A stretch of 64,000 bases of DNA from an uncultured Eubacteriales bacterium (lineage in GTDB: Bacteria > Bacillota > Clostridia > Oscillospirales > Acutalibacteraceae). Below are positions 46,869 through 63,585 of the stretch, piece by piece. Every line of letters starts with the position of its first letter. Positions within the stretch are counted from its first letter, which is position 1. The translations under genes and the position numbers were made by a program. The notes beneath the pieces are model-generated. The model made no database searches. It saw nothing but the letters and a program-made list of their open reading frames with translations, and was not told where the DNA came from. The stretch covers positions 215 through 64,214 of the forward strand of contig CAYWFB010000001.1 of NCBI GenBank assembly GCA_964457415.1, given 5' to 3'.

Positions 46869-47246
46869 TTATTTTTTAACTCCCCAAATACACTCATTAT
46901 TGTTGCCCATGGCAGAAAAAACAAGCTTTTCTGTTTTATCTGTTTCGTCTTTTTGTATACAGAACACGCCCTCATAGGTTACGCCGTCTATTACAAAGGT
47001 GGCATAAGCCGTGCCATCTGTAACACTCCAAGTGCCACTTACATCTTTTGACGAAACGGCGGTGTTATCCTTTACACTTTCGTATTTTTTAAGTCCTGTA
47101 ATTGTGCCATCGGCATTGAAAGTTATACTTTGGATTGGTGCAATAAGTCGGTCAACATAAACCCAACTTGATGCTCCGTTTGTAATATTACCGTGAGCAA
47201 CAAACTCATATTCACCACAGATTTCATAAGTGCCCTTTGTGTATGT
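46869..47246 (-). pseudogene. 5'-decapitated remnant of a GH43-type arabinanase/xylosidase (C-terminal beta-sandwich only)
   Basis: Manually translated stop-free minus-strand frame 46872-47258 with no start codon: ...YTKGTYEICGEYEFVAHGN...ITFNADGTITG...GTWSVTDGTAYATFVIDGVTYEGVFCIQKDE...LVFSAMGNNNECIWGVKK*. The frame opens exactly at the tRNA-like repeat. Confidence 0.6.
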
Positions 47247-47270
47247 TTTCGACTCCTGTCACGACCACCA
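47247..47270 (+). repeat. tRNA-3'-end-like direct repeat, copy 1 (ends ...CACGACCACCA)
   Basis: TTTCGACTCCTGTCACGACCAC is identical to 52281-52302. It reads as T-loop, T-stem 3' strand, acceptor 3' strand, then ACCA. No matching 5' half lies upstream. Confidence 0.65.
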
Positions 47271-47295
47271 CTTGAGTATAAAGTAATTGATACAA

Positions 47296-47332
47296 AAAGA
47301 ATTTCCATTAAATTGGAACTTCTTTTTGTTTT
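47296..47332 (+). terminator. stem-loop with T-run following repeat copy 1
   Basis: aaagaatttcca ttaaat tggaacttcttt ttgtttt. Confidence 0.55.
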
Positions 47333-47342
47333 ACTATAACAC

Positions 47343-47371
47343 TTGACAAATCAAAAATTTCCCTCTACAAT
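47343..47371 (+). promoter_or_regulatory. near-consensus sigma-A promoter of the toxin-immunity pair
   Basis: TTGACA (47343-47348), 17-nt spacer, TACAAT (47366-47371). Confidence 0.65.
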
Positions 47372-47414
47372 AATTTTCAGAACATTTGTTCTGCTACTTG
47401 AATGGAGGAATTTA

Positions 47415-47879
47415 ATGAATATAAATGAATGGAAAATTGTAGAGCCACCATTACATGAGAACTGTCGTTGTAAAATCGAACCAATGGAAGCCATTTTTGT
47501 AGGCGGAGCAACAAAAAATGGTGAAGCCGGTGCTGACTTTTGGTTGAAACATTTCAATAAATTACCGGATTATTATGTGACAGAAAGTGAAGCTGTTTCT
47601 ATGGGGTGGAGAAGAGGTAAATCACCTGTGAAATATTTGCCAGGAAAAATGCTAACAATGGGAATATATAATAATTCTAATGAACACTTACCACAAGCAG
47701 AAGGTCGTATATGGTACGAAGCGGATATAAATTATTATGAAGGCAAAAGAAATAAGCATAGGATTCTGTGGTCAAATGATGGATTAATATTTGTAACATA
47801 CGACCATTATGCGACTTTTTATGAAATTATAGGAGAAAATTATGGAGAAGAAAAAAATCATTACTTTAGACTTAACTGA
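47415..47879 (+). CDS. barnase-family ribonuclease toxin preceded by the terminal motif of a phage MuF (head-morphogenesis) domain
   Basis: PPLHENCRCKI (MuF C-terminal signature), then LPDYYVTESEAVSMGW...GRIWYEADINYYEGKRNKHRILWSNDGLIFVTYDHYATFYEI. This is collinear with barnase LPDNYITKSEAQALGW...GRTWREADINY...RILYSSDWLIYKTTDHYQTF. ATG 47415 follows GGAGG. Confidence 0.8.
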   Translation: MNINEWKIVEPPLHENCRCKIEPMEAIFVGGATKNGEAGADFWLKHFNKLPDYYVTESEAVSMGWRRGKSPVKYLPGKMLTMGIYNNSNEHLPQAEGRIWYEADINYYEGKRNKHRILWSNDGLIFVTYDHYATFYEIIGENYGEEKNHYFRLN

Positions 47880-48135
47880 TTGCAAATATTTAGGTGAAAT
47901 ACACGAGAGAATACAAGTTGCCTTTGATTTTCCAGAATGGTATGGAGCAAATTGGGATGCATTTTGGGATTTGTTGCGAAGCGAATGTGATGCAGATAAA
48001 TTGGAAATAATAGGAATTGATACGTTGTCTGAAAAATTTGATGAACACATTAAAATGATGATAATTATGCTTGATAAGTTTAAAGATAATTGCATAAAGT
48101 ATAATGATTATTTCGATTATGAAATTATCAATTAA
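47842..48135 (+). CDS. barstar-family immunity protein
   Basis: KIITLDLTDCKYLGEIHERIQVAFDFPEWYGANWDAFWDLL is a typical barstar N-terminus. Overlaps the toxin 3' end by 38 nt. Confidence 0.8.
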   Translation: MEKKKIITLDLTDCKYLGEIHERIQVAFDFPEWYGANWDAFWDLLRSECDADKLEIIGIDTLSEKFDEHIKMMIIMLDKFKDNCIKYNDYFDYEIIN

Positions 48136-48148
48136 TTTGAGGAATTTT

Positions 48149-48187
48149 ATGAACGAAAAGAAAATAATTACTTTAGACTTCACTTAA
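48149..48187 (+). pseudogene. 12-codon stump of a second barstar-like gene
   Basis: GAGGA RBS plus ATGAACGAAAAGAAAATAATTACTTTAGACTTCACTTAA (MNEKKIITLDFT*). Parallels MEKKKIITLDLT of the intact gene. It ends 5 nt before repeat copy 2. Confidence 0.6.
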
Positions 48188-48192
48188 AATAG

Positions 48193-48214
48193 TTCAGCTA
48201 CTGTCACGACCACC
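48193..48214 (+). repeat. tRNA-3'-end-like direct repeat, degenerate copy 2
   Basis: TTCAGCTACTGTCACGACCACC shares CTGTCACGACCAC with copies 1 and 3. Followed by a stem-loop and T-run at 48219-48255. Confidence 0.55.
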
Positions 48215-48303
48215 GCCGAAAGCTCTGCAAAATAATTTTCAGGGCTTATTTTATTGTTTATAGCATAGAAATTTTTACTATAATATTATCACTTTTATAT
48301 TTT

Positions 48304-48384
48304 CCCTTATTTTGAGTACAATATTAAGGGAATAATTGCTTAAAAGGTTGACTTTCCCCTTATATTGCGTTAGAATATAAGGGA
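48304..48384 (+). promoter_or_regulatory. Fic promoter with two related palindromic operator-like sites
   Basis: TTGACT (48348-48353), 17-nt spacer, TAGAAT (48371-48376). Inverted repeat CCCCTTATAT (48357-48366) / ATATAAGGGA (48375-48384). An upstream related site is CCCTTAT (48304-48310) / ATTAAGGG (48323-48330). Confidence 0.6.
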
Positions 48385-48404
48385 ATAAGTAAGGAGGTAA
48401 GGGA

Positions 48405-49451
48405 ATGAGAACTTTTAACTACTCCAAAATTAAAGAGCAAAAATGGGATTCTGACATTCTCGGCTTGATTGCTGCTATTTATAAAGAGGCAGGAAAGCAG
48501 GAATTGTATCTCAAGCAAAAGCCCGAAAAACTTGAAAAGCTTGTTGAGATTGCAAAGGTGCAAAGTACAGAGGCTTCTAACGCCATTGAAGGTATCGTTA
48601 CAACAAGCACTCGTGTTAGGCAGTTAGTTGAAGAAAAGACTACTCCCAGAACTCGTGACGAGCAAGAAATCGCAGGTTATCGTGATGTATTGAATATAAT
48701 TCATGAAAGTTTTGATGCAATTCCGTTGACTCAGAATTATATACTTCAGCTTCACAAAATGTTATACAGCCATATGAACAACCCAATGGCAGGTAAAACC
48801 AAGAGTGTGCAGAATTATATAAGTTCCACATATCCTGATGGTCATACTGAAACGCTATTCACTCCACTTTCACCTTTTGAAACACCTGAAGCACTTGATA
48901 AAATTTGTGAGGAGTTCAACAGAGTTATCGGCAATATGGAAGTTGAGCCATTGATTGCAATTCCGATTTTCATTCACGACTTCCTTTGCATCCATCCATT
49001 TAACGATGGCAATGGTAGAATGAGTCGTCTGCTTACCACATTACTCCTTTACAGAAGTGGTTTTCATGTTGGTAAGTATATTTCACTTGAAGCTAAAATA
49101 GCAAAAAATAAAGACCTTTACTATGATGCACTCAGCAAGGCACAAATTGGTTGGCACGAAGGGAATGAAGATAATGTTCCTTTCATCAAATACCTTCTTG
49201 GCACAATTCTTGCAGCATACAAGGATTTTGAAGAACGATTTAAGTTGATTGAGGAAAAACTGCCTGCAATTGAAATTGTGAGAAAAGCAACTCAGATTAA
49301 AATCGGGCGTTTTACCAAGCAGGATATTCGCGAACTCTGTCCTTCACTCAGTATAAGCACTCTCGAAGGTGCATTACGCAAAATGGTTGAATCCGGCGAA
49401 TTAAAGCGTGAAGGTAATGGTAAAAATACCTACTATTATCGATTGAGATAA
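48405..49451 (+). CDS. Fic-family protein (AMPylase-type) with N-terminal inhibitory helix motif and C-terminal wHTH-like region
   Basis: HPFNDGNGRMSRLL (HxFx[D/E]GNGRxxR). SNAIEG fits the [S/T]xxxE[G/N] auto-inhibition motif. AAGGAGGT RBS. Confidence 0.88.
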   Translation: MRTFNYSKIKEQKWDSDILGLIAAIYKEAGKQELYLKQKPEKLEKLVEIAKVQSTEASNAIEGIVTTSTRVRQLVEEKTTPRTRDEQEIAGYRDVLNIIHESFDAIPLTQNYILQLHKMLYSHMNNPMAGKTKSVQNYISSTYPDGHTETLFTPLSPFETPEALDKICEEFNRVIGNMEVEPLIAIPIFIHDFLCIHPFNDGNGRMSRLLTTLLLYRSGFHVGKYISLEAKIAKNKDLYYDALSKAQIGWHEGNEDNVPFIKYLLGTILAAYKDFEERFKLIEEKLPAIEIVRKATQIKIGRFTKQDIRELCPSLSISTLEGALRKMVESGELKREGNGKNTYYYRLR

Positions 49452-49556
49452 AAATCTCCACCCTGACAAATTTGCAACAGTTTTCGCTATTGTTTTTTGT
49501 TTTGTGAGTGGTATAATTTATTTATATTCAAGTACTATTATGAAAGAAGTGGAAAT

Positions 49557-51101
49557 ATGGTAAAAAACTATGATGCAGTTGTTATCGGTGCAGGTAATGG
49601 CGGACTTGTGGCATCAGCACGACTTGCCAAAGAGGGAAAAAAGACGTTACTTATTGAACGTCACAATTTACCCGGTGGTTTTGCCACAAGCTTTGTGAGA
49701 GGTAGATTTGAATTTGAAGCATCTCTTCACGAACTCTGTGGCATAGGCTCAATTACGGAAAAATCACCACTGCTTAAAATCTTTCAGGAGGTTGGTGCAG
49801 CAGATAAAATGGAATGGGTTGCACTTGATGAAGCATTCAGGTTGCTCACATTGGATGAAAACGATAAGTGCGACTATTCAATGCCTTTGGGTAAAGAGGC
49901 TTTTATTGCTAAACTCGAAGAATATGACCCCGGCTCTGCTCCTGTAGTTACAAAGATTTTTGACCTTATTGAAAGTATTGAAAAAACCTTGGTTTTCGTA
50001 AGCAATATTGAAGATTTCAAACCATCAATGATAAAAGAAATTTTTTCTGAGCATACAGATTTTCTTAAAATAGCAAACTATTCTGTTGATGAGGTACTGA
50101 AATCATTCGGAGCAAGTCAGAAAACAAAGGATATACTTAACGGATATTGGTGTTATCTTGGTCAACCTACTGATGAACTTAATGTTATTCACTATTTCAC
50201 AATGCTTCATTCATACATTATTGATGGTGCTGTTATTCCTAAGGGCAGAAGTCACCAGATAAGCACTGCTTTGCTTGAGGCATTTACCGAAAATGGTGGT
50301 GAGGCCTGGTTTAACACAAGCGTTAAGAAAATAAACGTTGAAAATGGCGTGGCAACAGGTGTTGTACTTGATGACGGTACACAAATAAACGCTAAAGCAG
50401 TTATCTGCAACGCTTCACCATATAATGCTTACACAAAACTTATAGATGAAAGTGCTATTCCTGAGAAACTTAAAAAAGAAGTCAATGCTAAAACATTGGG
50501 GGCAAAAGGTTTTGTAGTATTTTTAGGACTTAACCGTTCTGTAGATGAGTTAGGACTGAACAACCACACATATTTCATTTATCCGACTAACGACAACAGA
50601 AAGTGCTATGAACTCAGCAAACGCATTGAAACAAATGATGTTCAAGCAACAGTTTGTCTTAACAGAGCATTTGACGATTGTTCCCCTGAGGGTACAAGCA
50701 TCCTTTATATGACTTCTATTTTTGCAGGAGATGAATGGAGCAAGGTTTCTGTTAAGGATTACCATAAAACAAAGCATGCCTTTGCAGAAAAAATGATAGA
50801 TAACTTTGAAAAAGCAACAGGTGTTAAAATTAAGGATTATATTGAAGAAATTGAAATTGCGACTCCTATGACTTATGCCCGTTATACAGATGCTCCTGCA
50901 GGAACTATTTACGGATACGAAGCAAGCAAGGAAGACGGTATCGTTAAAAGAATTGTTTTTGATTTGATAGATAAAGGCATACCGGGGCTTTACTTTGCAG
51001 GTGGCTATACTACAAGGCATATGGGTTATTCACCAAGCTATACAACCGGTGATATGGCAGCAAAGGCTGCAATACTCGCTATGGAAAAGGAGGTAAAGTA
51101 A
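49557..51101 (+). CDS. FAD-dependent oxidoreductase, phytoene-desaturase (CrtI)-like family
   Basis: YDAVVIGAGNGGLVASARLAKEGKKTLLIERHN.PGG. Start at M21 of the track ORF. Confidence 0.8.
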   Translation: MVKNYDAVVIGAGNGGLVASARLAKEGKKTLLIERHNLPGGFATSFVRGRFEFEASLHELCGIGSITEKSPLLKIFQEVGAADKMEWVALDEAFRLLTLDENDKCDYSMPLGKEAFIAKLEEYDPGSAPVVTKIFDLIESIEKTLVFVSNIEDFKPSMIKEIFSEHTDFLKIANYSVDEVLKSFGASQKTKDILNGYWCYLGQPTDELNVIHYFTMLHSYIIDGAVIPKGRSHQISTALLEAFTENGGEAWFNTSVKKINVENGVATGVVLDDGTQINAKAVICNASPYNAYTKLIDESAIPEKLKKEVNAKTLGAKGFVVFLGLNRSVDELGLNNHTYFIYPTNDNRKCYELSKRIETNDVQATVCLNRAFDDCSPEGTSILYMTSIFAGDEWSKVSVKDYHKTKHAFAEKMIDNFEKATGVKIKDYIEEIEIATPMTYARYTDAPAGTIYGYEASKEDGIVKRIVFDLIDKGIPGLYFAGGYTTRHMGYSPSYTTGDMAAKAAILAMEKEVK

Positions 51102-52265
51102 ATGAGCAAGAAATTTTCTGTAAACGGCACTTTCAAGGATAGTATAAATACTATAAAGTTTTTAACCGAGAGAAATCAGTTTATAAACAGTGCCGATGCG
51201 ACTTTACCAACCCGTACTGATGATTTTGGTGTAAACAAGGTTGCTAAAAGTATTCACCCTAAAGAGCAAAAACTTGTAATCAGCAGAATTGAAGAACATG
51301 GAAATATTGCAAAAAGTTATTATTTCAAAAGCGAAACAGCACTTGCATATTTCAAAGCAGGTCAATATCTTACCTTTAAGCTTGAAATAGGTAATTCAGT
51401 TGTTACTCGTTCATATTCAATTGCTTCATCCCCCGCAAGTGCATTAAATGGTGAATATCAGATTACTGTTAAACGCATCAGTGATGGTTTTGTTTCCGAT
51501 TACATTCTTGATAACTGGAGTGTGGGAGATGAAGTTACTGCTTATGCACCAGAAGGAAATATGACATATTGCCCATTAAGAGATGCTGAAAACATAGTTG
51601 CCATCGCAGGTGGTAGTGGTATTACTCCTTTCCTTTCACTTGCAAGAGCAATCGACCAAGGCGATGAGAATTGTACTCTTACTTTACTTTATGGTTGCAG
51701 AACATCGGACGAAATTCTTTTCAAATCAGAGCTTGATTCACTTTCTGAGAAAAACGAGAAAATCAATGTGATTTATGTGTTGAGTGACGGTGATGAAGAT
51801 GGCTATGAAAAAGGCTTTGTTGGTGCAGATATTATAAAGAAATATGCTCCTGAAGGAAATTACAGTATTTTTGTTTGTGGACCAGGTGGTTTATATGAAT
51901 TCCTTGAAACAGAGCTTCCAAAACTTGAAAAAGAAAGAAAATATATACGCTTTGAAGTTTTTTCTTCAGGTAAAAAGAAAGAAGAACCAAAAGAATTCAG
52001 CATCACGGTAATTAACCGTGGAAATGAGTCAGTAATTAAAGCAAGTAGTAATGAAACTGTTCTTTGTGCATTTGAACGTGCAGGTATAGAAGTTCCTGCA
52101 AGATGTCACACAGGTGAATGTGGTTTTTGCAGAAGTAAGCTTGTAAACGGTAAGGTTTATATACCTGAGGGCGAAGATAAGCGCCGTATAGCAGATATGC
52201 AATTTAATTTTATACATCCTTGCTGTTGCTACCCCGAAAGCGACCTTGTTGTAAGGATTAATTAG
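51102..52265 (+). CDS. ferredoxin-NAD(P) reductase-like flavoprotein with C-terminal plant-type [2Fe-2S] domain
   Basis: RSYSIAS (RxYS FAD motif), GGSGITPF, and CHTGECGFCRSKL (Cx4Cx2C). The ATG abuts the upstream stop (TAAATG). Confidence 0.8.
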   Translation: MSKKFSVNGTFKDSINTIKFLTERNQFINSADATLPTRTDDFGVNKVAKSIHPKEQKLVISRIEEHGNIAKSYYFKSETALAYFKAGQYLTFKLEIGNSVVTRSYSIASSPASALNGEYQITVKRISDGFVSDYILDNWSVGDEVTAYAPEGNMTYCPLRDAENIVAIAGGSGITPFLSLARAIDQGDENCTLTLLYGCRTSDEILFKSELDSLSEKNEKINVIYVLSDGDEDGYEKGFVGADIIKKYAPEGNYSIFVCGPGGLYEFLETELPKLEKERKYIRFEVFSSGKKKEEPKEFSITVINRGNESVIKASSNETVLCAFERAGIEVPARCHTGECGFCRSKLVNGKVYIPEGEDKRRIADMQFNFIHPCCCYPESDLVVRIN

Positions 52266-52280
52266 TGAATTGAATCTATA

Positions 52281-52302
52281 TTTCGACTCCTGTCACGACC
52301 AC
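52281..52302 (+). repeat. tRNA-3'-end-like direct repeat, copy 3
   Basis: TTTCGACTCCTGTCACGACCAC is identical to copy 1. It lies 16 nt after the reductase stop. Confidence 0.65.
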
Positions 52303-52329
52303 AACCTCAGCACCTCGGTATTGATACAC

Positions 52330-52366
52330 GAGAAATCCCTTGAAATATAGGGGTTTCTTCATTTTG
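52330..52366 (+). terminator. stem-loop with T-run following repeat copy 3
   Basis: gagaaatccc ttgaaatata ggggtttcttc attttg. Confidence 0.55.
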
Positions 52367-52535
52367 CAAGCAAAATTAGTGCTCTTTTTAGGGCACTTTT
52401 TTGTTTTTAGAATTTCTCAAAAAATCAAATCGTAAACGGAGTACAAAAAATCGGACAGTTTCAAATATTTTTAATTGAGTATAAATACTTATTGTGATAT
52501 TATAGTCTTAGCAAATTATAAAAGGATGGTGCAAA

Positions 52536-52847
52536 ATGTATAGATGGGAAACTGACAAAAAGACTTATTTAAGATTAAAAGAATGTTTGAACGAATTGCA
52601 CCCTGAAATCAAGATTGAATTGATTGCTTATGACGAAAACCTTGAAAAATTAGCATTTACTCAATCCGCACCTTGTGTAGTTAACTTGTATTTAACTAAA
52701 GAACAACGTAGAATTCTATTAGATGAACTTGAAATGATTGAAATGGATGCAATCGATATCAGTGATAAAAAATCTAATGAAAGATATGAAAAATACGGCT
52801 GGCTTTGGGCTGTTTTTTATGATTTAGAGGAAGAAAAATATGAGTAA
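52536..52847 (+). CDS. hypothetical acidic 103-aa protein
   Basis: ORF with AAAGGATGG RBS. No recognisable motif. Confidence 0.4.
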   Translation: MYRWETDKKTYLRLKECLNELHPEIKIELIAYDENLEKLAFTQSAPCVVNLYLTKEQRRILLDELEMIEMDAIDISDKKSNERYEKYGWLWAVFYDLEEEKYE

Positions 52848-53286
52848 AGGTTATGAAGCTATTTGCATTAAAGAAGCAGAAGATGAAAATATGGTGAATG
52901 CAGATTGCTCTACTCTTTGGGAATTCTGGGACGCTTGGCGTGGCACTAAAAACCACGCATGGAGTGGTGGACCACTTGTGATAATGAGTAAACATTTTGC
53001 AGGTATCACTCCCCTTTCACCAGGCTATGAAAAGGTTAAAATCGACCCTCAATACACCTTGTCTAACAGTATGAATTGTACTGTCCCAAGTGTAAAAGGG
53101 TTATTCACTCTGGATTATGAAAAGGTTTCAGATAATTACACTATCAACCTTACCCTCCCACAAGATGCGAATGCTGTTTTATATGTGCCAACCGACGCTA
53201 CAGTAAATATCAATTCAGAAACTTATTACCAAAACGGTAATTACATAAACACCGAAATCGGTAATGTGGAGATTGTGGAAAAGTAA
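52840..53286 (+). pseudogene. C-terminal remnant of a GH78 alpha-L-rhamnosidase-like gene
   Basis: STLWEFWDAW.GTKNHAWSGGPLVIMSKHFAGITPLSPGYEKVKIDPQ plus a beta-sandwich tail matches the last ~125 aa of bacterial rhamnosidases. The ~700-aa N-terminal part is absent. Confidence 0.55.
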
Positions 53287-53766: not shown

Positions 53767-54531
53767 ATGAACGGTTTATTTGTACGCGAAATAAGTATAA
53801 AATGCGATATACCACGCGGGAATTACATCAACAATCTTCCCGTGGTGGATTGGCTTAAAAGCAACTCTTTGGAATTCAACAAACCTGTGACTTTTATTGT
53901 AGGCGAAAACGGAATTGGCAAGTCAACACTTATTGAGGGGCTTGCGGTTGCTTTGGGCTTCAATGCCGAGGGCGGAAGTAAGAATTTCAACTTTTCAACC
54001 GAGAATTCACACTCAGATTTGCACGAATATTTAAGTGTCCGCAGAGGATTAAAGCAACCTCGTGACGGATTTTTCTTGCGTGCCGAGAGCTTTTACAATG
54101 TGGCATCCAACATTGACCAGATGGACAGAATGCCTGCCGCCGCTCCGCCTGTAATCGACAGCTACGGCGGTGTGTCACTCCACGCGCAATCCCATGGCGA
54201 AAGCTTTATCGCTCTCACCGAAAACCGATTTGGCGGAAACGGACTTTATATCCTTGACGAGCCTGAAGCCGCACTCTCTCCAATGCGAATCATGAGGCTT
54301 ATGTGCAATATCGACCACCTTGTAAAGCAAGGCTCACAGTTTATAATCTCAACCCATTCTCCAATCCTGATGACCTTCCCCGACGCCGATGTTTACGAAA
54401 TAACTCACGAGGGAATAAACCTCGTCCCCTACTCCCAAACCGAGCATTTCCAAATCACAAAACAATTCCTCAACAACCCCGAACGAATGCATAAATATTT
54501 GTTTGAGGAGCAAATACCTATTTTAAAATAA
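53767..54531 (+). CDS. stand-alone ABC/SMC-like AAA ATPase (COG3910-type)
   Basis: Walker A GENGIGKST, signature-like SHGESF, Walker B LYILDEPEAALSP, H-loop STHSPIL. Confidence 0.85.
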   Translation: MNGLFVREISIKCDIPRGNYINNLPVVDWLKSNSLEFNKPVTFIVGENGIGKSTLIEGLAVALGFNAEGGSKNFNFSTENSHSDLHEYLSVRRGLKQPRDGFFLRAESFYNVASNIDQMDRMPAAAPPVIDSYGGVSLHAQSHGESFIALTENRFGGNGLYILDEPEAALSPMRIMRLMCNIDHLVKQGSQFIISTHSPILMTFPDADVYEITHEGINLVPYSQTEHFQITKQFLNNPERMHKYLFEEQIPILK

Positions 54532-54540
54532 GAGTATAAA

Positions 54541-54585
54541 AAAGCCTATGAAGTTTGAAACTCAATCTTACCTCATAGGCTTTTC
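54541..54585. terminator. bidirectional terminator between the ATPase and the MBL operon
   Basis: aaagcctatgaag ... cctcataggcttt, 12/13 stem. Confidence 0.7.
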
Positions 54586-54635
54586 ACTGTTTGTCTGCAG
54601 TTAATTTTGGATAGTAATTTTATTATTCTCTCCCT

Positions 54636-55478
54636 TCAATAATCAGCCCTTCCCCAATCTACATTACAGTGTCCATCTTCAATATCAAAGGTTATTGTAC
54701 CTTCATTTCTTGTTGTCAGAACATACCTGTAATTACCATCCAATTTTGCTCCTCTGCCTTTATAAAGGCGTGCTGTATCGTTCTGTGTTTCATGTTCAAT
54801 AGATTTATCTGATACAACGGTAAGATATGGATTAACACAATTGAAAAAATCCTGACAAAACTCGCCGGTTCTTCCATGATGAGGCGCCAATAAAACTGTT
54901 GCATTTTTTACTTTTGAGCAAATATCTTCATGATTTTCATCCATCATTCTTTGAAGAATTGATTTCGGATTATCTCCTGTTAAAACGAATTTATATCTAT
55001 ATGCATTAACTACTACTATGCTTGAAAAAGTATTTAAATCTTGCTTGGTGGTCCACTGTGATTTAGGTAATATAAACTCAAAAGAGACGCCCCCATTTGC
55101 CGTTTTTTCTGTTGGCAATTCATTCATATTTACGGGCTGATTATATGAAGCATTCATCTTGTTAGCGATGTCTGCTATATTTCTATGTATATATGTATTT
55201 TGTGTCGGTATAATGTTGAATGCTTCTGTGGGTCTATTTAGAACTCTTGGGTGGAGTTCTGCATATAATTTAGGCAAATCATAAATATGGTCTTCGTGAG
55301 GGTGTGTGATAATTAGCTCATCAACAGCACCACTATAACCGTTAAAATATTTTCTTTTAATATGTTCTACAATACTTTTATCAGTTTTGCTACCGACATC
55401 TACCAATATATGTTTATTATTTGGTGTAATAATATGACAACAACTACCATGGTCTACATCATAAAAAATTATTTTCAT
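54636..55478 (-). CDS. ComEC/Rec2-type MBL-fold metallo-hydrolase (280 aa)
   Basis: FYDVDHGSCCHI...LVDVG, ITHPHEDHIYDL (HxHxDH), LTGD, LLAPHHGR. Confidence 0.8.
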   Translation of the reverse strand: MKIIFYDVDHGSCCHIITPNNKHILVDVGSKTDKSIVEHIKRKYFNGYSGAVDELIITHPHEDHIYDLPKLYAELHPRVLNRPTEAFNIIPTQNTYIHRNIADIANKMNASYNQPVNMNELPTEKTANGGVSFEFILPKSQWTTKQDLNTFSSIVVVNAYRYKFVLTGDNPKSILQRMMDENHEDICSKVKNATVLLAPHHGRTGEFCQDFFNCVNPYLTVVSDKSIEHETQNDTARLYKGRGAKLDGNYRYVLTTRNEGTITFDIEDGHCNVDWGRADY

Positions 55479-55529
55479 AAAACTATACTCCTTTAAATAT
55501 TAATAAGTAAACATACCTTTCATAATTTT

Positions 55530-57010
55530 CTATATACTTCCTATTGGCACATCTATTCTATCTTGTGCTACACAAACTCCATTTTTCACAAGATAGCATT
55601 CTACAAAGTGCTCACCATAAAAATCTGTGTGTTCTTTGTGATGTGTGTTACCGAGCTTAATCTGCCCTCGAATACAGTCTCTTTCTTCTGCAACTACTCC
55701 CACATTTCTGACTTTCCAATAGATATCGTATGGGCACGGACAAGTTGTGCTTTCTATGAAAAAGTCTAGTGATTTATGCCTTCTTAAATATCCCCTGCTT
55801 TTAAGAAAATCAATTAAAAAGAAATCTCTCCAACCATTTTGTGATACTTTACAATTTATTCTTAATCTATATTGTTCTCTTACAGGAAACATATCTGTTA
55901 TAAACTGCTCCGTATTTCTAAAAGAAGGACGACAATAACTACTCTTTTCAACAACGGTGCTATCTTCGTTAGCAAATTCGTTTAATGTAATGCCATTATC
56001 ATCAACAGTAAATACAATTGGAGAAGGCTTGCTATCTTTCTTCCGTTTATGTTCCATCGTCACCAAAAACGATACATCTGATGCAGTGTATTTTTTATAT
56101 GCATGTTTAGCAATCATGTGTGGCGGAGAAGTATCTTCCGTTATCTCCTTACAAGAAGCAACCATATAGCCATTTTCTTGAGCTTGTTCTAATAACCACT
56201 GTACATTTTCAGTTGGTGTGATAATTCTAGTATCTTTTTCATCTTTTTCGTTTAACCCAGTATGGCTACAATGATGTGGTATATCATAAATATCCCATAC
56301 AAGTTTATCTTCATTTTTATTCTCTTTTGTTATGTCAACTATCTTATCTGAAACTGCATATTGAGTGTCACCCGTAATTAAAATGTTCGCTTCGTTATCT
56401 CCATAATACAAACGGACTTGCATCACAATTGATGGGTCGTTCTTGTCTTGCACTTCTTCGCTATCATCTGAAAAAGGAGCATGGACAAAAATCTCTATTT
56501 CATCTTCAGCTCCAGATATTGATAATGTATCTCCTGCATGGACAATCAAATGTTTAACATCATCATACTTTATTTCTTCTTTATCAATCCATTTTTTAAT
56601 TCTTCAGGTTCTCCAAATATTCTCACACCATAGCCCGACTTAAATCTATGTCTTGCTTCTTGTCTTATTATTTTCGCATCAGACCCATTCTCTAAGTTTG
56701 TATCTAATAAGAATGCAGCAGATATCCACAATTCTTCTATCTTCGCTCTTGAATCTGACTGATATTCTTTTGCATAATCCAAGTAAAAGAATTTGCTGGC
56801 ACCTTTTGTGTGGTCTTCATGTGCATGCGAAAACATAACAACCTGAAATTCTTGGATTTCTGATAAATCTTTTTTTATATCATAACGCTCATCATCTTCT
56901 GCGCCTTCATACACATCAGCAAAATCAAATAGTAAGCATTTCCCATTATCTAGTTCCAACAAACTTGTTTCTGCGTTACCAATTGGGAAAAATGTCAACT
57001 TATGTGCCAT
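55530..57010 (-). pseudogene. MBL-fold metallo-hydrolase fused to an AGS-C-like C-terminal domain, split by a 1-nt frameshift in an A6/T6 run (track ORFs 56570-57010 and 55530-56549)
   Basis: The N-terminal ORF has FFPIGNAETSLL and FSHAHEDHTKG. The C-terminal ORF continues the same fold (ILITGD, IPHHCSH). The two frames overlap around T6 at 56592-56597. One extra A gives ...EPEELKKWIDKEEIKYDDVKHLIVHAGD... Confidence 0.75.
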
Positions 57011-57025
57011 AATTTACTCCTCCTA

Positions 57026-57559
57026 TTAACTTTTTTCCATATAGTTTTTAATTCGTTTATTTATGTAATTTGTTTGCTTTTTATAACTAACTACAAAAAC
57101 TATCATTAACACTAAAAAAGCCACTACAACTAACCAATCATTACTAATTTTATTAATTAAAATATCATGTATTTTCCAATCATATAACTTTGCAATCAGT
57201 AATGAAAAACCAATAGAAATTGTTGTTCTGTACAAATTATTTGTTTCATTTAACACTTCAATAAATGGTTCGGCTTTTGATGCCGCAATGTAATCCTTGT
57301 AGTCACTTTTTTTAATAAACGGACCGATTGCCTTTATTTTTACTTTTGTTAAAAGAGGTTCTATAATTAGTGAACCTATTCTACTTATTATCATTCCAAC
57401 AAAATAATATATAAAAAGATTTTCTAACAAGCTGCCATTAGCAATTGTAAAACGAGTAGTTTTATCAAGAATATAGCAAAACGCTATTCCGGGCAACAAA
57501 TTATTGAATATGTTATATGATGAAATCTTTTCAGATACACTTTTAACAATATCTTCCAT
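57026..57559 (-). CDS. small integral membrane protein (about 4 TM segments)
   Basis: 177 aa. Hydrophobic segments IFNNLLPGIAFCYIL, LFIYYFVGMIISRIGSLII, TTISIGFSLLIAKLY and WLVVVAFLVLMIVFVVSY. Gaps of 15 and 18 nt to the flanking MBL genes. Confidence 0.6.
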   Translation of the reverse strand: MEDIVKSVSEKISSYNIFNNLLPGIAFCYILDKTTRFTIANGSLLENLFIYYFVGMIISRIGSLIIEPLLTKVKIKAIGPFIKKSDYKDYIAASKAEPFIEVLNETNNLYRTTISIGFSLLIAKLYDWKIHDILINKISNDWLVVVAFLVLMIVFVVSYKKQTNYINKRIKNYMEKS

Positions 57560-57577
57560 ACAAAAACCTCCGCGTTT

Positions 57578-58714
57578 TTAATAATTAACGACTAAGTGCA
57601 CTGCACTTCCACAATCTTCTGTCACAATAAATGGATAACGATTATTAAACATCAAATTTTTAATTACTTTAGAATGTGGATGACGATATTTATTACTCCT
57701 ACCTACAGAAATAACAAAAAATGAATTTAGTGTTGAAAAACAACTATTATAATTATGGCTAGAACCATGATGTGGAATTTGCAAACAACCTATTTGATTC
57801 CATTGTTTCAAATACATATCTTTTAAATCCTCAAACTGTTGTTTTTTTGAAGCATCATAATCACCCGTATATAAACAACCGGAAGGTTTAATACAATATT
57901 TACAATAATGTCTGCAAAAGTTATTAGGCTGTGCAACCTGATATCCACCGTGTTGGATTGGACCTGAAAAAAGTGTCATCGAGTTCGTGTTATGGTCTCC
58001 GTCAATTTCTTGATAAGCTTTTTTTATTTTTTTCTTATTATCATTATTTTCATTCCATAAATTTTGTAAATTTCTCAATCCTTCAAATTCAAATCCAAAA
58101 GCAATTTCTAATTTTTCTTTTAATAATTCTGTTCTTTCCTTGTTCTTAAAATTAAATGGAATATAACACCAATCCTTTAACAATCCTATTTTTGTTCTTT
58201 CAATAACGCCATTCACATTTTCTCCAGAATAAATAGGTTTAGCACGCAACTGATTGGAGACGTCATATCTAACTTCCTCTCCATAAGGAATAATTGGGAA
58301 TAACATCGGCCGCGACTCGCCCAAATCGATGCTGTCTAATGCATGCCTTGGATTATCAACAAACAAATTCACAAAAGAATCTTTTTTAACCCCATTTATA
58401 AGATTACTAACTAACACAATATTCTTTTCATCTTCATTCATCAAGGGAAAGAAAATATTTTTAACATTACAATATTTCAACAAATATTTTAATCCGTTGA
58501 TATGGTCGTTATGCAAATGAGAAATAAAAACAGCATGAATAATTTCATCCTTATCAAATATTGCTCTAATTTCTGCTTCCACCCATTTAACATCCGTAGA
58601 CGAACCACAATCGTAAACAATATTAACCTTTTTATTATTAGATAACAGACCATCAAATTGTTCGCAATAAAAGGCACCTTGTCCGACAGGCAAAAAACTT
58701 CTTATCATTCTCAT
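57578..58714 (-). CDS. ComEC/Rec2-type MBL-fold metallo-hydrolase (378 aa) with inserted Cys cluster
   Basis: FLPVGQGAFY, FISHLHNDHINGL, IPHHGSSHN, and the insert CRHYCKYCIKPSGC. Start at M7 of the track ORF (GAAGGTG RBS). Confidence 0.8.
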   Translation of the reverse strand: MRMIRSFLPVGQGAFYCEQFDGLLSNNKKVNIVYDCGSSTDVKWVEAEIRAIFDKDEIIHAVFISHLHNDHINGLKYLLKYCNVKNIFFPLMNEDEKNIVLVSNLINGVKKDSFVNLFVDNPRHALDSIDLGESRPMLFPIIPYGEEVRYDVSNQLRAKPIYSGENVNGVIERTKIGLLKDWCYIPFNFKNKERTELLKEKLEIAFGFEFEGLRNLQNLWNENNDNKKKIKKAYQEIDGDHNTNSMTLFSGPIQHGGYQVAQPNNFCRHYCKYCIKPSGCLYTGDYDASKKQQFEDLKDMYLKQWNQIGCLQIPHHGSSHNYNSCFSTLNSFFVISVGRSNKYRHPHSKVIKNLMFNNRYPFIVTEDCGSAVHLVVNY

Positions 58715-58928
58715 AGTACAACACCTTCTCATATTCTATAAATTTATAAAATCCTAATATAATATAAATCGAAATTAAGATTCCTTTTGTGACAAAATAT
58801 TACAAACTTTTTCATCATAAAGCAAACAAAACACTTTACCTTTACGTTCAAATTACATTTATAAACAAATTGGTGCTTACCATTGTTTATAGCGGTAGAA
58901 TTACTGCTATACCAAGTGGATATAAAAA

Positions 58929-58961
58929 TTAAAGGTGTTAGCCAATGGTTAACACCTTTAA
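58929..58961 (-). terminator. long hairpin downstream of the helicase gene
   Basis: ttaaaggtgtta gccaatgg(t) taacacctttaa, followed on the minus strand by tttttata. Confidence 0.6.
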
Positions 58962-59140
58962 TTCATTGATTCAATTATAAGTCTTGTGCTGAATTTGAAG
59001 TCTTGCAGAAAACTTTCCCTTTCCGCGATACTGATAAGGTCTTCATTACAGATAAACATTTTCAAGCATTTCTATATATTTGTACTACTTTCGCAGCACA
59101 AATGTATATCACACATTTTTGCATAAGTTTAGCTAATCTC

Positions 59141-61615
59141 TCAACTTTTAATATTTCTTATATACCTGCAACCATAGTTTCTGTAATTTGAACACCCAAA
59201 AAACTCACCGTATGGACCAGAACGTTTTACTAATCGACCACCACACAAAGGACATTCATATTGTTCTTTCTTCATACTATCACCATACCTCAACTGCAGT
59301 TCTTTTACAAAATCAGATTCCTGCTTATCAACAGTCACCAAAATTGCTTTTTCTTTAGCCCTCGTCATTGCTACATAAAACAATCGGCGTTCCTCAGCAA
59401 ATGGATACTGGTCACAGTTATCAAGAAGCAATTCAAGAATTGCCGCCTCCTGAACTTTACTCGGAAATCCCATTCGAGATTTTTTATTATTAATAATAAA
59501 CACGTAATCTGCCTGCAACCCCTTAGATTTATGTGCTGTAATAAAGTTCATTTTTAGGTCATGACGATTTTTATAAACAACATCAATCAAGCCACTAATG
59601 TTATTATATTTGCAATCAAACAAACCATTTTCACTAAGTAATTTACTATCAAAAGTGTACCGTCCAATAAAGAATACTGAACTCCCTTTGGGTAAATCAT
59701 CTAATCTTGAGGCCATAAACTCTATAGCAAATTTATCTGTATAACCAGTTACCTGACCTAATACAAAACTTTTTGAATCAATATTTCCTTTGATTGATTT
59801 TTTTATCTGAATGGGATTTTGCATTATAAAATTGCCACTTATTTCAATAAGTTGCTGACTGAAACGATATGTAGTTTCTATTTTGCTTAATTCCGTTGCA
59901 CCCCAATATTTTTCAAAGTTCAGTATATATCCTATATCACTACCTGCAAAACGATATATGCTCTGCCAGTCGTCTCCAACACAGAACAAATCAAAATCTT
60001 GTGAATCACGCAATGCTTTAAGTAATGAATACCTCGCCTTTGAAATATCCTGGTATTCATCGACAATTACACATTTATATGGACTGTAGTATTTCTTTTC
60101 ATTGACATATTGCGTTGCAAGATTAATCATATCATTAAAATCAATCTCGTTATTTTGTTTTAAATAATCACAATAAGCATTGAAAATAGGCTCAATTAAA
60201 TTAAGTATTGTAAAATTGCTTTGGGCGTTGCTATTACCAACATTTAATTGTCTAACAGTACTAATCGTATATCCATTACTTTTAATAAGATTTATCACTG
60301 TCTCAAATAATTCAATAATACCATCAAGAATCGAAGGCTCCGTTGCAAGTTGAGACCATAATTCCTGTGCAGATTTCGGGTTTAATTCAACACCATTTTC
60401 TTTGAGTTTTTTCTTAAGATTATCTAGCAAAGTCCCCTCAAACTTTTCATAAGCATAACACTCTATCATTGTCGTGTTATTTGCCTCATGTAATTCTCTC
60501 TTCCAATTCATTGACTCTTGATAAACCTGAGTTGCGGTCTTACCTTTTGAGCCGTTGAAATATGCTGGAACCTCACCATTTTTGTTTATACCAAAATATT
60601 CAATATAAATATTATACTTTGGAAGGTGAAAATCTGGTTGATATTGCGTATTCTCTTTTGTGCGAGTATCTATCCCATAAGGGCATTCATAAATATACTC
60701 CACTCCGTTTTGAGCAAGAAAATTTGCAATATCCATTTCACCATAACTTTTTACTATTTCATTACTTACGGTCGTAGGTGGATTCAGTTTTAAGTAATCT
60801 TCGTATTCTGCACGTGTCTGAAAGTCAAATTCGGATTTTGCAACTACTCGATTATAGAGCAAATATAAGCTCAAAAGTTGAAGATATGCATCTGACTCCA
60901 TTAAATCAGATATTTTTTCTTTTATGAACTTACGCAAATTAAGTTGAGTTATCTTAGGTGCAATACCATTAAATTCCGTAATAATATTCAGTCCCAATTT
61001 GTGAAATGTAGAAGCTGCAATTTCATATCCTGTTTCTTTATTTATTCTCTGACACATTTCACTTGCAGAAGCGTTTGTGAAAGATAAGACAAGAATATCT
61101 TCTGGCTTATATTGCTTTGTTTTCAATAAAAATTTAATTTTTCCAACAACAGTAGTTGTTTTACCAGTTCCTGCCCCGGCGATTACCAAATGGTTATGTG
61201 CATCTTTCAGGATGCATGTCATTTGTTGCTTATCCAACCTGTGTCCTTCAACATCACCTATGAGCGTATACGCATTTTGAATTTTTAATTCTGCAATTCG
61301 ATTATTGTGAGTTTGTATTCGATGTTTTAATTGTTTTAGTGCATCTTGAATGGCTATCCTTTGAGTTAAAAAAGAATTGAAATTATTTGCCTTTTTAATT
61401 GTTTTTATATTAAATAATGAAATTTCATTTAACAATTCCGAATATTGCAATTGCCATTCTTCAGCTTTAGAGGGTTCAATAAAGTCATCATTATTAAACA
61501 AGCTTGAAATTTCTTTTAAAGCAAAAGAAATCCGTGCGATATAACTATCACACAAATCATTTCGTTCTTTTATTTTTGCTTTGTGTCGTTCAATCAGTTT
61601 TTTAATAAAACCCAT
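59141..61615 (-). CDS. helicase IV/UvrD-family SF1 helicase with nuclease-like insert and C-terminal topoisomerase-type zinc ribbon
   Basis: EGHRLDKQQ...VIAGAGTGKTTT, VIVDEYQD, CVGDDWQSIYRFAGS, TAHKSKGLQADYV, FYVAMTRAKE. Insert SYGEMDIANFLAQNGVEYIYE...YQPDFHL..YNIYIEYFG. C-terminal CPLCGG..(16)..CSNY..YGC. Confidence 0.85.
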   Translation of the reverse strand: MGFIKKLIERHKAKIKERNDLCDSYIARISFALKEISSLFNNDDFIEPSKAEEWQLQYSELLNEISLFNIKTIKKANNFNSFLTQRIAIQDALKQLKHRIQTHNNRIAELKIQNAYTLIGDVEGHRLDKQQMTCILKDAHNHLVIAGAGTGKTTTVVGKIKFLLKTKQYKPEDILVLSFTNASASEMCQRINKETGYEIAASTFHKLGLNIITEFNGIAPKITQLNLRKFIKEKISDLMESDAYLQLLSLYLLYNRVVAKSEFDFQTRAEYEDYLKLNPPTTVSNEIVKSYGEMDIANFLAQNGVEYIYECPYGIDTRTKENTQYQPDFHLPKYNIYIEYFGINKNGEVPAYFNGSKGKTATQVYQESMNWKRELHEANNTTMIECYAYEKFEGTLLDNLKKKLKENGVELNPKSAQELWSQLATEPSILDGIIELFETVINLIKSNGYTISTVRQLNVGNSNAQSNFTILNLIEPIFNAYCDYLKQNNEIDFNDMINLATQYVNEKKYYSPYKCVIVDEYQDISKARYSLLKALRDSQDFDLFCVGDDWQSIYRFAGSDIGYILNFEKYWGATELSKIETTYRFSQQLIEISGNFIMQNPIQIKKSIKGNIDSKSFVLGQVTGYTDKFAIEFMASRLDDLPKGSSVFFIGRYTFDSKLLSENGLFDCKYNNISGLIDVVYKNRHDLKMNFITAHKSKGLQADYVFIINNKKSRMGFPSKVQEAAILELLLDNCDQYPFAEERRLFYVAMTRAKEKAILVTVDKQESDFVKELQLRYGDSMKKEQYECPLCGGRLVKRSGPYGEFFGCSNYRNYGCRYIRNIKS

Positions 61616-61637
61616 AAGTGCTCCAAAATCTAATTAA

Positions 61638-62051
61638 TTATATTAATATCCCATCACAATGGTCGATTTCGTGCTGAATTATTTGTGCTGTCCACCCGGT
61701 GAAAGTTTTGATTTGGATTTGGAATTCAGCTGTCTGCCACTGCACTTTTATGCTCTTGAAACGATTACACTTACGTGGGCTACCAAGTAATGAAAGGCAT
61801 CCCTCTTCTGTTTCATAAGGCTCTGATTTCTTAATGATTTCAGGATTGAACATAGTCATATATGTACCATCATTATCAAAACAGATAATGCGTTTATGAA
61901 CACCAATCATATTAGCAGCCATACCAACACAACCTTCAGCATTAGCAATAAGTGTGTCAAGCAAATCCTGTGCCACCTGCAAATCTTCAATTGTAGCCTT
62001 CTCCGATTTCATTGCCAACAAAATCGGGTCATGAATTACTTCTTTAATCAT
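61638..62051 (-). CDS. def: short (137-aa) peptide deformylase paralog
   Basis: Motifs CVGMAANMIG (variant of GxGxAAxQ with Met in place of Gln), EEGCLS and QHEIDH. 22-nt gap to the helicase gene. Confidence 0.8.
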   Translation of the reverse strand: MIKEVIHDPILLAMKSEKATIEDLQVAQDLLDTLIANAEGCVGMAANMIGVHKRIICFDNDGTYMTMFNPEIIKKSEPYETEEGCLSLLGSPRKCNRFKSIKVQWQTAEFQIQIKTFTGWTAQIIQHEIDHCDGILI

Positions 62052-62181
62052 TGTTACTCCTTGTTTATCTTATGCAACAGATTTTTGCATAAGAGTCTAT
62101 GACTATATTTTTATTATAATTAGGCACAAAAACGAACTTTTTGATATCTTTATGTTGTTGGCGCAATCAAAGTGTTGCAAT

Positions 62182-63090
62182 TTATTTTTTCTTAAAACTT
62201 TCCCTTTTTAATGTTCTTTCATCTATAATCCTACGCTTTACAGCTTCACAGATACTACTAAGGTCTGGCATTAAACGAAACGTATTGTATCCTAATGTGT
62301 CAAGATACTGTATAAGTTCATCACGCAAATCCTTATGAATTCTAATCACATGAGAGTTGTTTTGAAGGATGCGCAAATGCTCATCTTTATCTAATGTGTA
62401 AGGGAACATAAATAATCCTTGTTGCATAATAATTCTCTGATTTGATTGGTTCGGATCAATAAATAAAATTGCATGATTCTTGATTTTTTTCTCTTTGTCA
62501 TTAGAATTTTCAATTGTATCAGTAAACCCATCAAGAGACCATATACTCCTATGTAATTTATTATCTCCAAACAAGTCAGTTACACTATCAATACATTGAC
62601 TTGCTTTTTTTGACAGTGAATCTGTTTTCGTCCATTTCATGTTATGTATTTCATCATTCAAAGGAATAGACGAAACACATAAATTTTCTTTTAAAGAAGC
62701 ATATCTTACATAATAATATGTTTTATCATCTTTTTCTTTATATTTGGGTCCTTTAGGCATATATAATGCAAAAGAAAGGGCAATAAACGGATTTCGCGTG
62801 AAGTCGAGCAATCTCGTAGGCAAGCCAAAATGCTGAGCATATGACATGAAGTCTATGGGCGTATTTGCGCGAAAATAATTGCTACCATACTTTTCAAAAT
62901 CATGAAGCAACTCATTTTCAACATCTGCATAGTCTTTATCACGAATAACATTAGGAAACAACTCATCTTGCTTACCGTATCCTCTAAATACATAATCGCC
63001 ATTACGAGCTAAAGCATTTAGTCTATCTATTACACCTTCAATACCGTCTTGTGTCTCTATAGTATTCAAATCAATATTATCTACCTTCAT
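62182..63090 (-). CDS. FRG-domain protein
   Basis: YVFRGYGKQDELFPN...YAQHFGLPTRLLDFTRNPFIALSFAL is the FRG signature. Start at M12 of the track ORF (GGGGGGA RBS). Confidence 0.8.
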   Translation of the reverse strand: MKVDNIDLNTIETQDGIEGVIDRLNALARNGDYVFRGYGKQDELFPNVIRDKDYADVENELLHDFEKYGSNYFRANTPIDFMSYAQHFGLPTRLLDFTRNPFIALSFALYMPKGPKYKEKDDKTYYYVRYASLKENLCVSSIPLNDEIHNMKWTKTDSLSKKASQCIDSVTDLFGDNKLHRSIWSLDGFTDTIENSNDKEKKIKNHAILFIDPNQSNQRIIMQQGLFMFPYTLDKDEHLRILQNNSHVIRIHKDLRDELIQYLDTLGYNTFRLMPDLSSICEAVKRRIIDERTLKRESFKKK

Positions 63091-63198
63091 CTTTAATCCC
63101 CCCGTATTTTTGCATAAAAGCATATCAATCAGTTCCTACACTCCGCAAATCATTTTTACCAAATATCTTGTATCAAAGCAATAAATAAAACCTTTTTA

Positions 63199-63585
63199 TC
63201 ATTGTGCACCTTTAATAATCTTTTCAAGGATTTCTTTATCTGCTGGGCAAAAGTTGTATTTTGGGCTTTCTGCAGGAGTAATCCACTTAATATCGTTGTT
63301 TTCAAGCTTTTGCGGCGCACTTTCAGCAATTATTGCGTTGAACAATGTTAAGTGCACTGTGACGTCTGGATACTCATGAACCACGTCCATAAATACATCG
63401 GCAACAGAAAGCGTTATTGACAATTCTTCCTGACACTCGCGAACGAGTGCCTGTTCTTTTGTTTCACCAGGTTCGACCTTACCACCGACAAATTCCCAAA
63501 GTAAACCACGTGCTTTATGTACAGGTCGTTGACAAATCATAAACTTATCATTATCCCATATTAATGCTGCAACTACTTCCACCAT
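63199..63585 (-). CDS. NUDIX hydrolase (MutT/8-oxo-dGTPase-like)
   Basis: Nudix box GGKVEPGETKEQALVRECQEELSI. Confidence 0.85.
   Translation of the reverse strand: MVEVVAALIWDNDKFMICQRPVHKARGLLWEFVGGKVEPGETKEQALVRECQEELSITLSVADVFMDVVHEYPDVTVHLTLFNAIIAESAPQKLENNDIKWITPAESPKYNFCPADKEILEKIIKGAQ

Follow-up and report, generated by a model that had tools for sequence, protein, structure and literature searches.

The 64-kb window analyzed here (64,000 nucleotides of contig CAYWFB010000001.1, from an uncultured Clostridia bacterium) contains three co-oriented copies of a short repeat, hereafter cores, between positions 47247 and 52302. Alignment with related genomes showed that the cores derive from the 3' end of tRNA-Pro(UGG), as a disabled variant of it, and the locus is a flexible island marked by tRNA fragments, bearing the well-known marks of integration into a tRNA gene and subsequent decay. 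The repeats are probably attachment-site scars, left by integration targeted to the T-loop of tRNA-Pro and now inactive and eroding. This anchors a defense and carbohydrate-use island of an uncultured gut Clostridia clade to the tRNA-Pro(UGG) 3' end, and provides a marker of 22-31 nt by which the limits of islands and modules can be found in metagenome-assembled genomes (MAGs), where integrases are missing. Mildly unusual features are the sharing of one disabled tRNA-end variant and the integrase-less mini-arrays.

tRNA-Pro-derived cores in the window

An exact 22-mer, TTTCGACTCCTGTCACGACCAC, occurs on the + strand as copy 1 (47247-47268) and copy 3 (52281-52302), with an expected number of chance matches of 0 (100 shuffles). 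Copy 2 (48193-48214, + strand) matches the 22-mer at 18/22 positions and has the exact 13-mer CTGTCACGACCAC in common with it. A search of the window with the 22-mer, allowing up to 2 mismatches, found only copies 1-3, all co-oriented, which are spaced 0.95 kb and 4.1 kb apart from core to core. The similarity of copies 1 and 3 is kept at 79% over 48 nt. The 9-nt left extension of copy 3, GAATCTATA, is common to its orthologous copies and to the right end of a mini-element beside tRNA-Pro in relatives (see below), and the left half of copy 2 reads TTCGGCTAC in two sister contigs (L034 and L041; related loci are given L numbers), 7/9 identical to the core. A first-pass annotation had reported the exact pair and the degenerate third copy, which we confirmed, and had parsed the motif into T-loop TTCGACT, T-stem CCTGT, acceptor strand CACGACC, discriminator A and, in copy 1, CCA, a parse that fits the tRNA-Pro alignment of relatives. 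The cores and the features that abut them are as follows.

46869..47246, - strand: 5'-truncated GH43 remnant of ~125 codons with a GH43_C domain (PF16369, also carried by homologs P0001-P0005)
47247..47268, + strand: copy 1, core derived from the tRNA-Pro(UGG) 3' end (T-loop to CCA, GACC variant), 20/23 to the tRNA-Pro 3' end and 0/5 to the T-stem 5' strand
47292..47329, + strand: terminator-like hairpin and T-run 3' of copy 1, 94% complementary, part of a -17.9 kcal/mol fold (z -4.1)
48149..48187, + strand: 12-codon stub of a second barstar-like gene, 79% over 43 nt to the barstar start and upstream bases
48193..48214, + strand: copy 2, degenerate core, with a weak hairpin (48220-48247) and a T-rich run on its 3' side
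52272..52302, + strand: copy 3, core with its 9-nt left extension
52303..52443, + strand: conserved leader 3' of copy 3, with hairpin (52330-52359), terminator (52378-52397) and iteron (52430-52443), 89.6% identical to the leader of core L003:3917

None of the window copies is a tRNA gene. ARAGORN detected 0 tRNA or tmRNA genes in the 64 kb, and there was no Rfam match in the window. GGTCGTG, the 5' half complementary to the acceptor strand, is absent 30-110 nt upstream of any core (a single match with 1 mismatch among 27 cores), as the first-pass annotation had held, and the inverted partner GGAGTCGAAC is absent from the window; no complete cloverleaf with a 5' acceptor strand pairing to the 3' strand is formed by any window copy. 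A reading of the motif as a small peptide (FDSCHDH...) was rejected by inspection, since frame and start differ between copies.

In relatives, tRNA-Pro(UGG) ends in GCAGG-TTCGACTCCTGTCAC-TCCG-ACCA, and the motif reads TTCGACTCCTGTCAC-GACC-ACCA. Over the last 23 nt of the tRNA, from the first T-loop base through CCA, 20/23 positions are identical, and the three substitutions sit at acceptor positions 69, 70 and 72, within a 4-nt block (TCCG to GACC). Because of these substitutions the motif is unable to pair with the tRNA-Pro 5' strand, CGGGGTG. In 16 of 17 displaced copies the similarity to the tRNA ends exactly at the first T-loop base (0-2/5 matches to the T-stem 5' strand), the exception being L009, in which it continues for 8 nt further. 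The proposed origin in a tRNA 3' end thus stands, with tRNA-Pro(UGG) as the source, while the exact identity with a tRNA end that had been predicted does not. An exact 20-mer scan with TTCGACTCCTGTCACGACCA over one genome per species (185,579 species, GTDB-wide) retrieved 9 loci, all in gut or rumen Clostridia MAGs, several of them named Candidatus Fimenecus; none of the 9 lies inside a tRNA, and no tRNA ending in ...CACGACCA was found among these species genomes. The exact scan of metagenomes returned 4 loci, including a chance match in a coding region (L014). The use of an exact 20-mer query biased which loci were retrieved.

Both truncated genes stop at the same core edge. Homology of the GH43 remnant continues up to the left edge of copy 1, which is its truncation point, and the barstar-like stub ends 5 nt before copy 2, consistent with the truncations described in the first-pass annotation. 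The core also marks a step in composition, from 39-46% GC on its left to 29-38% on its right, the side on which the defense genes lie. In all, the low-GC island spans at least 17 kb and extends beyond the window end.

Each window copy is followed by its own, different hairpin and T-run, as had been noted before; the hairpin 3' of copy 2 (-10.1 kcal/mol) is weak (z -1.6), and 3' of copy 3 the hairpin at 52330-52359 and a second at 52368-52406 (hairpin core 52378-52397) jointly reach -34.6 kcal/mol (z -5.3). To the right of every core, relatives included, stands one of several terminator types, and many cores then carry a longer conserved leader with a second terminator, 21-nt iterons and a promoter. 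If insertion regenerates the tRNA gene and the incoming DNA has to terminate it, a distinct terminator per copy is the expectation, and a T-loop-sharp edge together with terminators is the layout to be expected where a new tRNA 3' end and a terminator arrive with that DNA. The T loop is among the named crossover subsites of integration into tRNA genes (PMC4383910).

In the model that we favor, elements inserting site-specifically at the T-loop of tRNA-Pro would bring their own tRNA 3' end and terminator, and repeated insertions would push earlier junctions downstream, the outcome being co-oriented units of core, terminator, promoter and cargo. In the window, the tRNA gene is not adjacent any longer, no recombinase is left and deletions are eroding the units; the cores would now be no more than passive markers of boundaries or short patches of homology. 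We infer that a tyrosine integrase made the junctions. The earlier proposal of serial integration with loss of the integrase and of the tRNA 5' part holds in that neither is present, and is weaker as to the integrase itself, no core-linked recombinase having been found in ~30 loci.

Arrays beside tRNA-Pro in related genomes

In L002, L003/L015, L004, L005 and L009, a core is preceded on the same strand, at a distance of 80 bp to 3.5 kb, by an intact tRNA-Pro(UGG). The first-pass annotation had suggested comparing syntenic loci for an intact tRNA plus integrase; the tRNA was found, and no integrase was detected beside any core in ~30 related loci. In L003/L015, tRNA-Pro is followed by four co-oriented fragments, one with the authentic TCCG, one with GACC and two more diverged, which bound GH32+ABM, BNR-sialidase and sigma/anti-sigma/MazE modules. 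In L007, two cores flank the GH32+ABM module known from L003 (90% identity), and the sigma module precedes it instead of following it. The leaders form families (D, D', E and others) that are combined with differing cargo. Unbiased core copies show divergence at 1-5/21 nt, roughly the same as that of the surrounding DNA. The window itself was matched by independent assemblies, at 100% in L011 and 99.9% in L012.

A mini-element of ~90-210 nt was observed between the tRNA-Pro terminator and the first core (L004:7628-7758; also L003, L005, L006, L026 and L016). Its ends are the inverted repeats GGAGTCGAA...TTCGACTCC, and its predicted fold is a three-way junction closed by the core (-47.1 kcal/mol, z -6.2); it has no Rfam match. 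In L002 just two 12-nt arms are present, as a lox-like palindrome, ACAGGAGTCGAA-N10-TTCGACTCCTGT; in L003, L004 and L005 the arms lie ~90-210 nt apart.

Two further repeat types were observed in the leaders and between island genes. Between the post-core terminators and the next promoter lie 3-4 copies of a 21-nt direct repeat, GGGTAATCGTTTACGGAGTAT, with 2-3 GTGTACGGAGTA repeats (L001:3130-3260, L007:4860-4975, L032:3680-3790 and L020/L021), of which the window retains one copy at 52430-52443; these iterons may be binding sites for a regulator or arm-type sites for a recombinase. A terminator-promoter module, GCAACAG-N7-CTGTTGC followed by a T-run and ...GTGGTATAAT, recurs between many island genes in relatives (intergenic in L001, L023, L026 and L028) and has one copy in the window (49473-49517). 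This module could provide homology for module exchange.

Units of the window and their erosion

The unit between copies 1 and 2 encodes a toxin and its immunity protein, in addition to the barstar-like stub.

47343..47371, + strand: promoter-like site TTGACA-17-TACAAT upstream of the toxin gene (11/12 consensus positions; a consensus match only)
47415..47879, + strand: barnase-family RNase toxin (PF00545, 6.6e-9)
47842..48135, + strand: barstar immunity gene (PF01337, 1.2e-13)

The barnase open reading frame (ORF) starts directly after a PPLHENCRC motif, which we take to be the end of MuF-type phage head proteins, and it looks like the orphaned C-terminal tip of a polymorphic toxin, accompanied by its barstar immunity gene. 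L034 and L041 are Logan contigs of sister samples, 98% identical to the window. In L041, the terminator after copy 1 has been lost via a deletion between CACTTGA repeats, and the barnase gene is lost too; L034 lacks the terminator (by the CACTTGA deletion), the barnase gene and also barstar, the last via recombination between the two barstar 5' ends. In both contigs, 27 nt of the GH43 remnant are left, joined to another left flank (with a GH4-like gene), and copy 1 and its junction recur at ~95%. The barnase/barstar unit is a decaying relic, in agreement with the earlier reading of 47271-48192.

Copies 1 and 2 share a G-to-A change (CACAACC) in both contigs (L034:1394 and 1584; L041:848 and 1345), and copy 3 lacks it, which hints at gene conversion between neighboring cores. 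The GH43 remnant was rejected as a guide to synteny: it has just 5 short or partial homologs, in unrelated contexts. In the relative L019, an intact 487-aa GH43 gene is followed by a frameshifted 92-aa C-terminal ORF.

The segment 48215-52280, which had been taken for one cassette, is composite, with a Fic gene of independent history followed by an operon that forms a conserved block.

48405..49451, + strand: Fic gene, SoFic-like (PF02661; SoFic 4e-40)
49557..51101, + strand: FAD amine-oxidase-like gene of a two-gene oxidoreductase operon
51102..52265, + strand: FNR-like/2Fe-2S gene of the same operon
52840..53286, + strand: chimeric ORF, ~17 codons of an island gene joined to a C-terminal alpha-L-rhamnosidase remnant (52867-53286; PF17390)

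More than 8000 Fic homologs were found at E<1e-80, and one that is 94% identical adjoins a type I restriction-modification operon, with no core reported nearby. Judged by these homologs, Fic is an independently spread, promiscuous gene, and it was rejected as a cassette marker on account of the 94% homolog. Exact-protein look-ups of Fic, the NagB-like protein and barstar found none on record. Two 36-nt direct repeats at 48300-48388, with an internal palindrome CCCTTAT...ATAAGGG, overlap promoter-like sites before Fic and are probably operators. Homology of the operon to relatives begins at 49474-49487, and Fic therefore lies outside the operon's unit.

The FNR-like protein has thousands of close homologs, and among relatives the operon occurs with or without a core. 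The arrangements, with the amino acid identity of the FNR-like protein, were:

L023 (97%): operon, then ABM and a full-length rhamnosidase gene; no core
L026/L027 (94%): tRNA-Pro(UGG) ~260 nt upstream of the operon
L028-L033 (91%), also L001 and L008: operon, then an orthologous core and leader, then variable genes

Copy 3 begins 15 nt after the FNR-like stop codon. Since the orthologous core is present across several species, copy 3 is old and not the recent scar that had been supposed; on synteny, it is the cross-species left end of a variable segment that replaces ABM and the 5' part of the rhamnosidase gene. The rhamnosidase remnant is 82% identical to L023:13536-13952, the 3' end of the full-length gene, and represents the ancestral neighbor of the operon; in L032, an intact rhamnosidase gene lies 7.3 kb after the core and leader. 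In L010, the DNA that follows copy 3 is longer and includes an intact 136-aa island gene. By this comparison, a later deletion in the window fused the island gene to the C-terminal ~140 codons of the rhamnosidase gene.

Farther downstream, a defense cluster at 53767-63585, of low GC (29-35% over most of it), contains an AAA ATPase (mads3/AriA/GajA-like), PDC-M48A, PDC-M48B, an AGS_C-only protein (the sensor end of a CBASS-type cyclase), a UvrD helicase that has a Zn ribbon and resembles GajB/RTasHel, PDC-S15 (FRG domain) and PDC-S07.

Known systems and competing explanations

Islander islands are flanked by tDNA fragments and range from 2 to 200 kb in length (Hudson, Lau & Williams 2015; PMC4383910). 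The cores resemble them in that a terminal 3' fragment of the tRNA gene, starting in the T-loop region, is placed downstream of that gene and on the same strand (as seen in relatives), in that multiple fragments stand in tandem, and in the shift of composition and the accessory cargo; 'damaged' fragments, altered just upstream of the discriminator, are likewise a known class (PMC4383910). Unlike these islands, the window has neither an intact tRNA, such as is present in L002-L005, L009 and L026, nor a tyrosine integrase, its units (0.9-4 kb) are at or below the 2-kb lower limit, and the damaged GACC form is shared and dominant across genomes, not a one-off. In tycheposons, tRNA-seeded islands of Prochlorococcus, new arrivals push older ones inward and leave partial tRNA copies between them (Hackl et al., bioRxiv 10.1101/2020.12.28.424599). 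Alike are the degenerate remnants, the extra partial tRNAs scattered in the island as separators (three copies in the window, four after tRNA-Pro in L003/L015) and the defense and nutrient-use cargo; unlike are the host, here gut Clostridia, the sequence of the target tRNA, and the integrase and replication modules by which tycheposons are defined, none of which was seen here. That tDNA fragments mark the ends of islands and tandem islands, and that fragments in tandem, degenerate integrase-less remnants and 'damaged' fragments occur, is documented for these systems (PMC4383910; bioRxiv 10.1101/2020.12.28.424599).

Two other systems share part of this anatomy. Cis-mobilizable elements (CIMEs) undergo accretion with integrative and conjugative elements (ICEs) in Streptococcus; like the window units, they are small att-flanked segments without an integrase of their own, in tandem at an integration site, although no cognate ICE or integrase was identified here. 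In integrons, attC sites are imperfect inverted repeats (R''-L''...L'-R') with a GTTRRRY core, and promoterless cassettes are recombined by the IntI integrase. Integrons and clusters of attC sites lacking integron-integrases (CALINs) are similar to the present arrays in that co-oriented short repeats separate small, diverse units with no integrase nearby. They differ in that the core here is tRNA-derived and lacks an internal dyad, the units carry promoters and terminators of their own, IntI was not found, and boundaries are not cleanly at the core; the arrays do not conform to an integron or CALIN, the attC consensus being judged by inspection only. Readings as a diversity-generating retroelement, dif/Xer site or attC site were rejected, also by inspection only, as there is no template/variable repeat pair, 11-6-11 dyad or GTTRRRY.

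Several findings weigh against scars of integration at tRNA-Pro. Searches detected no tyrosine or serine recombinase in the 64 kb or beside any core in ~30 related loci. Pfam detected no recombinase in the window (ORFs between 38 and 63 kb and 10/34 ORFs of at least 150 aa between 1 and 38 kb), a tyrosine recombinase and three serine recombinases used as phmmer queries against all window ORFs of at least 70 aa gave no match at E<=10, and the units of the window, of L003 and of L007 yielded no hallmark gene of integration or replication. The motif occurs in no IMG/VR viral contig, and neither it nor the leader occurs in any of 50,697 GenBank phages. The GACC variant, which cannot rebuild a working tRNA-Pro, makes up 15/17 displaced copies and predominates across at least 12 genomes, and it also stands before flank types that come after the genuine tRNA in other loci (L006, L009 and L016); a simple attL/attR model does not predict this. 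At 0.9-4 kb, the units are very small. Several species have copy 3 by inheritance, and recombination in the flanking conserved genes can account for its polymorphism. Finally, the shuffling breakpoint between L007 and L003, the only one mappable, lies in the leader hairpin region, not in the core.

The location of this breakpoint suggests that homologous recombination among leaders drives the present-day mosaicism, and the whole pattern might be such a mosaic: a core with a 60-250 nt leader of terminators, iterons and promoter, repeated between genes, would have derived once from the tRNA-Pro end and spread without repeated integrase events, through RecA-type recombination, duplication, gene conversion and deletion. 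The recombined leader families with their different cargo, the presence or absence of copy 3 between the conserved oxidoreductase operon and rhamnosidase gene, the deletions between short direct repeats in L034 and L041, the G-to-A change shared by copies 1 and 2 there, and the lack of an integrase near any core all agree with this. We nevertheless consider it a rather unlikely account of the cores themselves, as a sharp common left edge, beyond which the DNA of nearly all copies is unrelated, is a prediction of site-specific crossover and not of homologous recombination, two different genes are cut exactly at the core edge, and recombination between direct repeats gives deletions and duplications more easily than the permuted order of L003 versus L007. 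That permuted order, in which the same cassette takes different places in two genomes, would also suit an active platform, in which a tyrosine or large serine recombinase encoded elsewhere would use the core (~31 nt including GAGTCTATA) and its leader as recombination site, and would insert and excise small promoter-bearing cassettes in an integron-like or pdif/Xer-like manner. Arrays of 2-4 cores do bound integrase-less units of 0.9-3 kb (GH32+ABM, sialidase, sigma factor, toxin-immunity), the non-tRNA GACC variant is widespread, L002 has the lox-like palindrome, and an element with three large serine recombinases meets the leader exactly at the right edge of the core. If true, glycan-use, toxin-immunity and defense cassettes would be shuffled in gut Clostridia on a deliberately disabled tRNA end, considerably more interesting than scars. 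Both a platform of this kind and its integron-like or pdif/Xer-like operation seem improbable to us, because no recombinase is consistently linked to the cores, the cassettes bring promoters and terminators of their own, inspection showed no attC-like paired inverted repeats, the cores diverge (1-5/21 nt) about as much as surrounding DNA, the mapped breakpoint is away from the core, the window units are visibly decaying, and locus retrieval was biased by the exact 20-mer query.

The position of copy 3, 15 nt after the FNR-like stop and before strong terminators, and the strongly folding mini-element that the core closes in relatives (z -6.2) would fit a functional RNA, with the core transcribed at operon 3' ends and acting jointly with the hairpins as a tRNA-like signal for processing, stability or termination. 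Such a role is very unlikely, given that no Rfam family matches, a 5' partner for the acceptor and T stems is absent, and the sequence on the left is unrelated between copies; moreover, copy 1 lies behind an opposite-strand gene remnant, and therefore no upstream same-strand transcript is expected. Chance similarity or an assembly artefact is effectively refuted: the source is probably a metagenome-assembled contig, misassembly can start from repeats, and near-identical strains differ in the left flank of copy 1, but zero chance matches are expected, independent assemblies (L011 and L012; L034 and L041) show these junctions too, and orthologous copies are present in many species. Scars of T-loop-targeted integration at tRNA-Pro thus remain our preferred reading. 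A reading as phage attP was rejected: the motif is absent from the viral contigs and phages searched, and a tRNA-Pro query retrieved only tRNA-Pro genes carried by phages.

The only integrases observed in the related loci belong to two elements. A tRNA-Trp-like 5' half (...GGTCTCCAAAACC), broken in the anticodon arm, stands beside a tyrosine integrase and an HTH_17 gene at L028:18000-19700 (also in L029 and L033); this integrase was rejected as core-linked, as it belongs to an unrelated element at the split tRNA-Trp-like gene, a few kb downstream of the region with the core. The element with three large serine recombinases (L020, L021 and L042; IMGVR_UViG_3300024269_003064 and IMGVR_UViG_3300024272_000329) is joined to the conserved leader, and its other junction was not found in the available DNA. 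The observed junction falls exactly at the core's right-edge position (...GTTAGA, then CACCTAAGTAC...), and four TTGCAACC repeats lie just inside the element.

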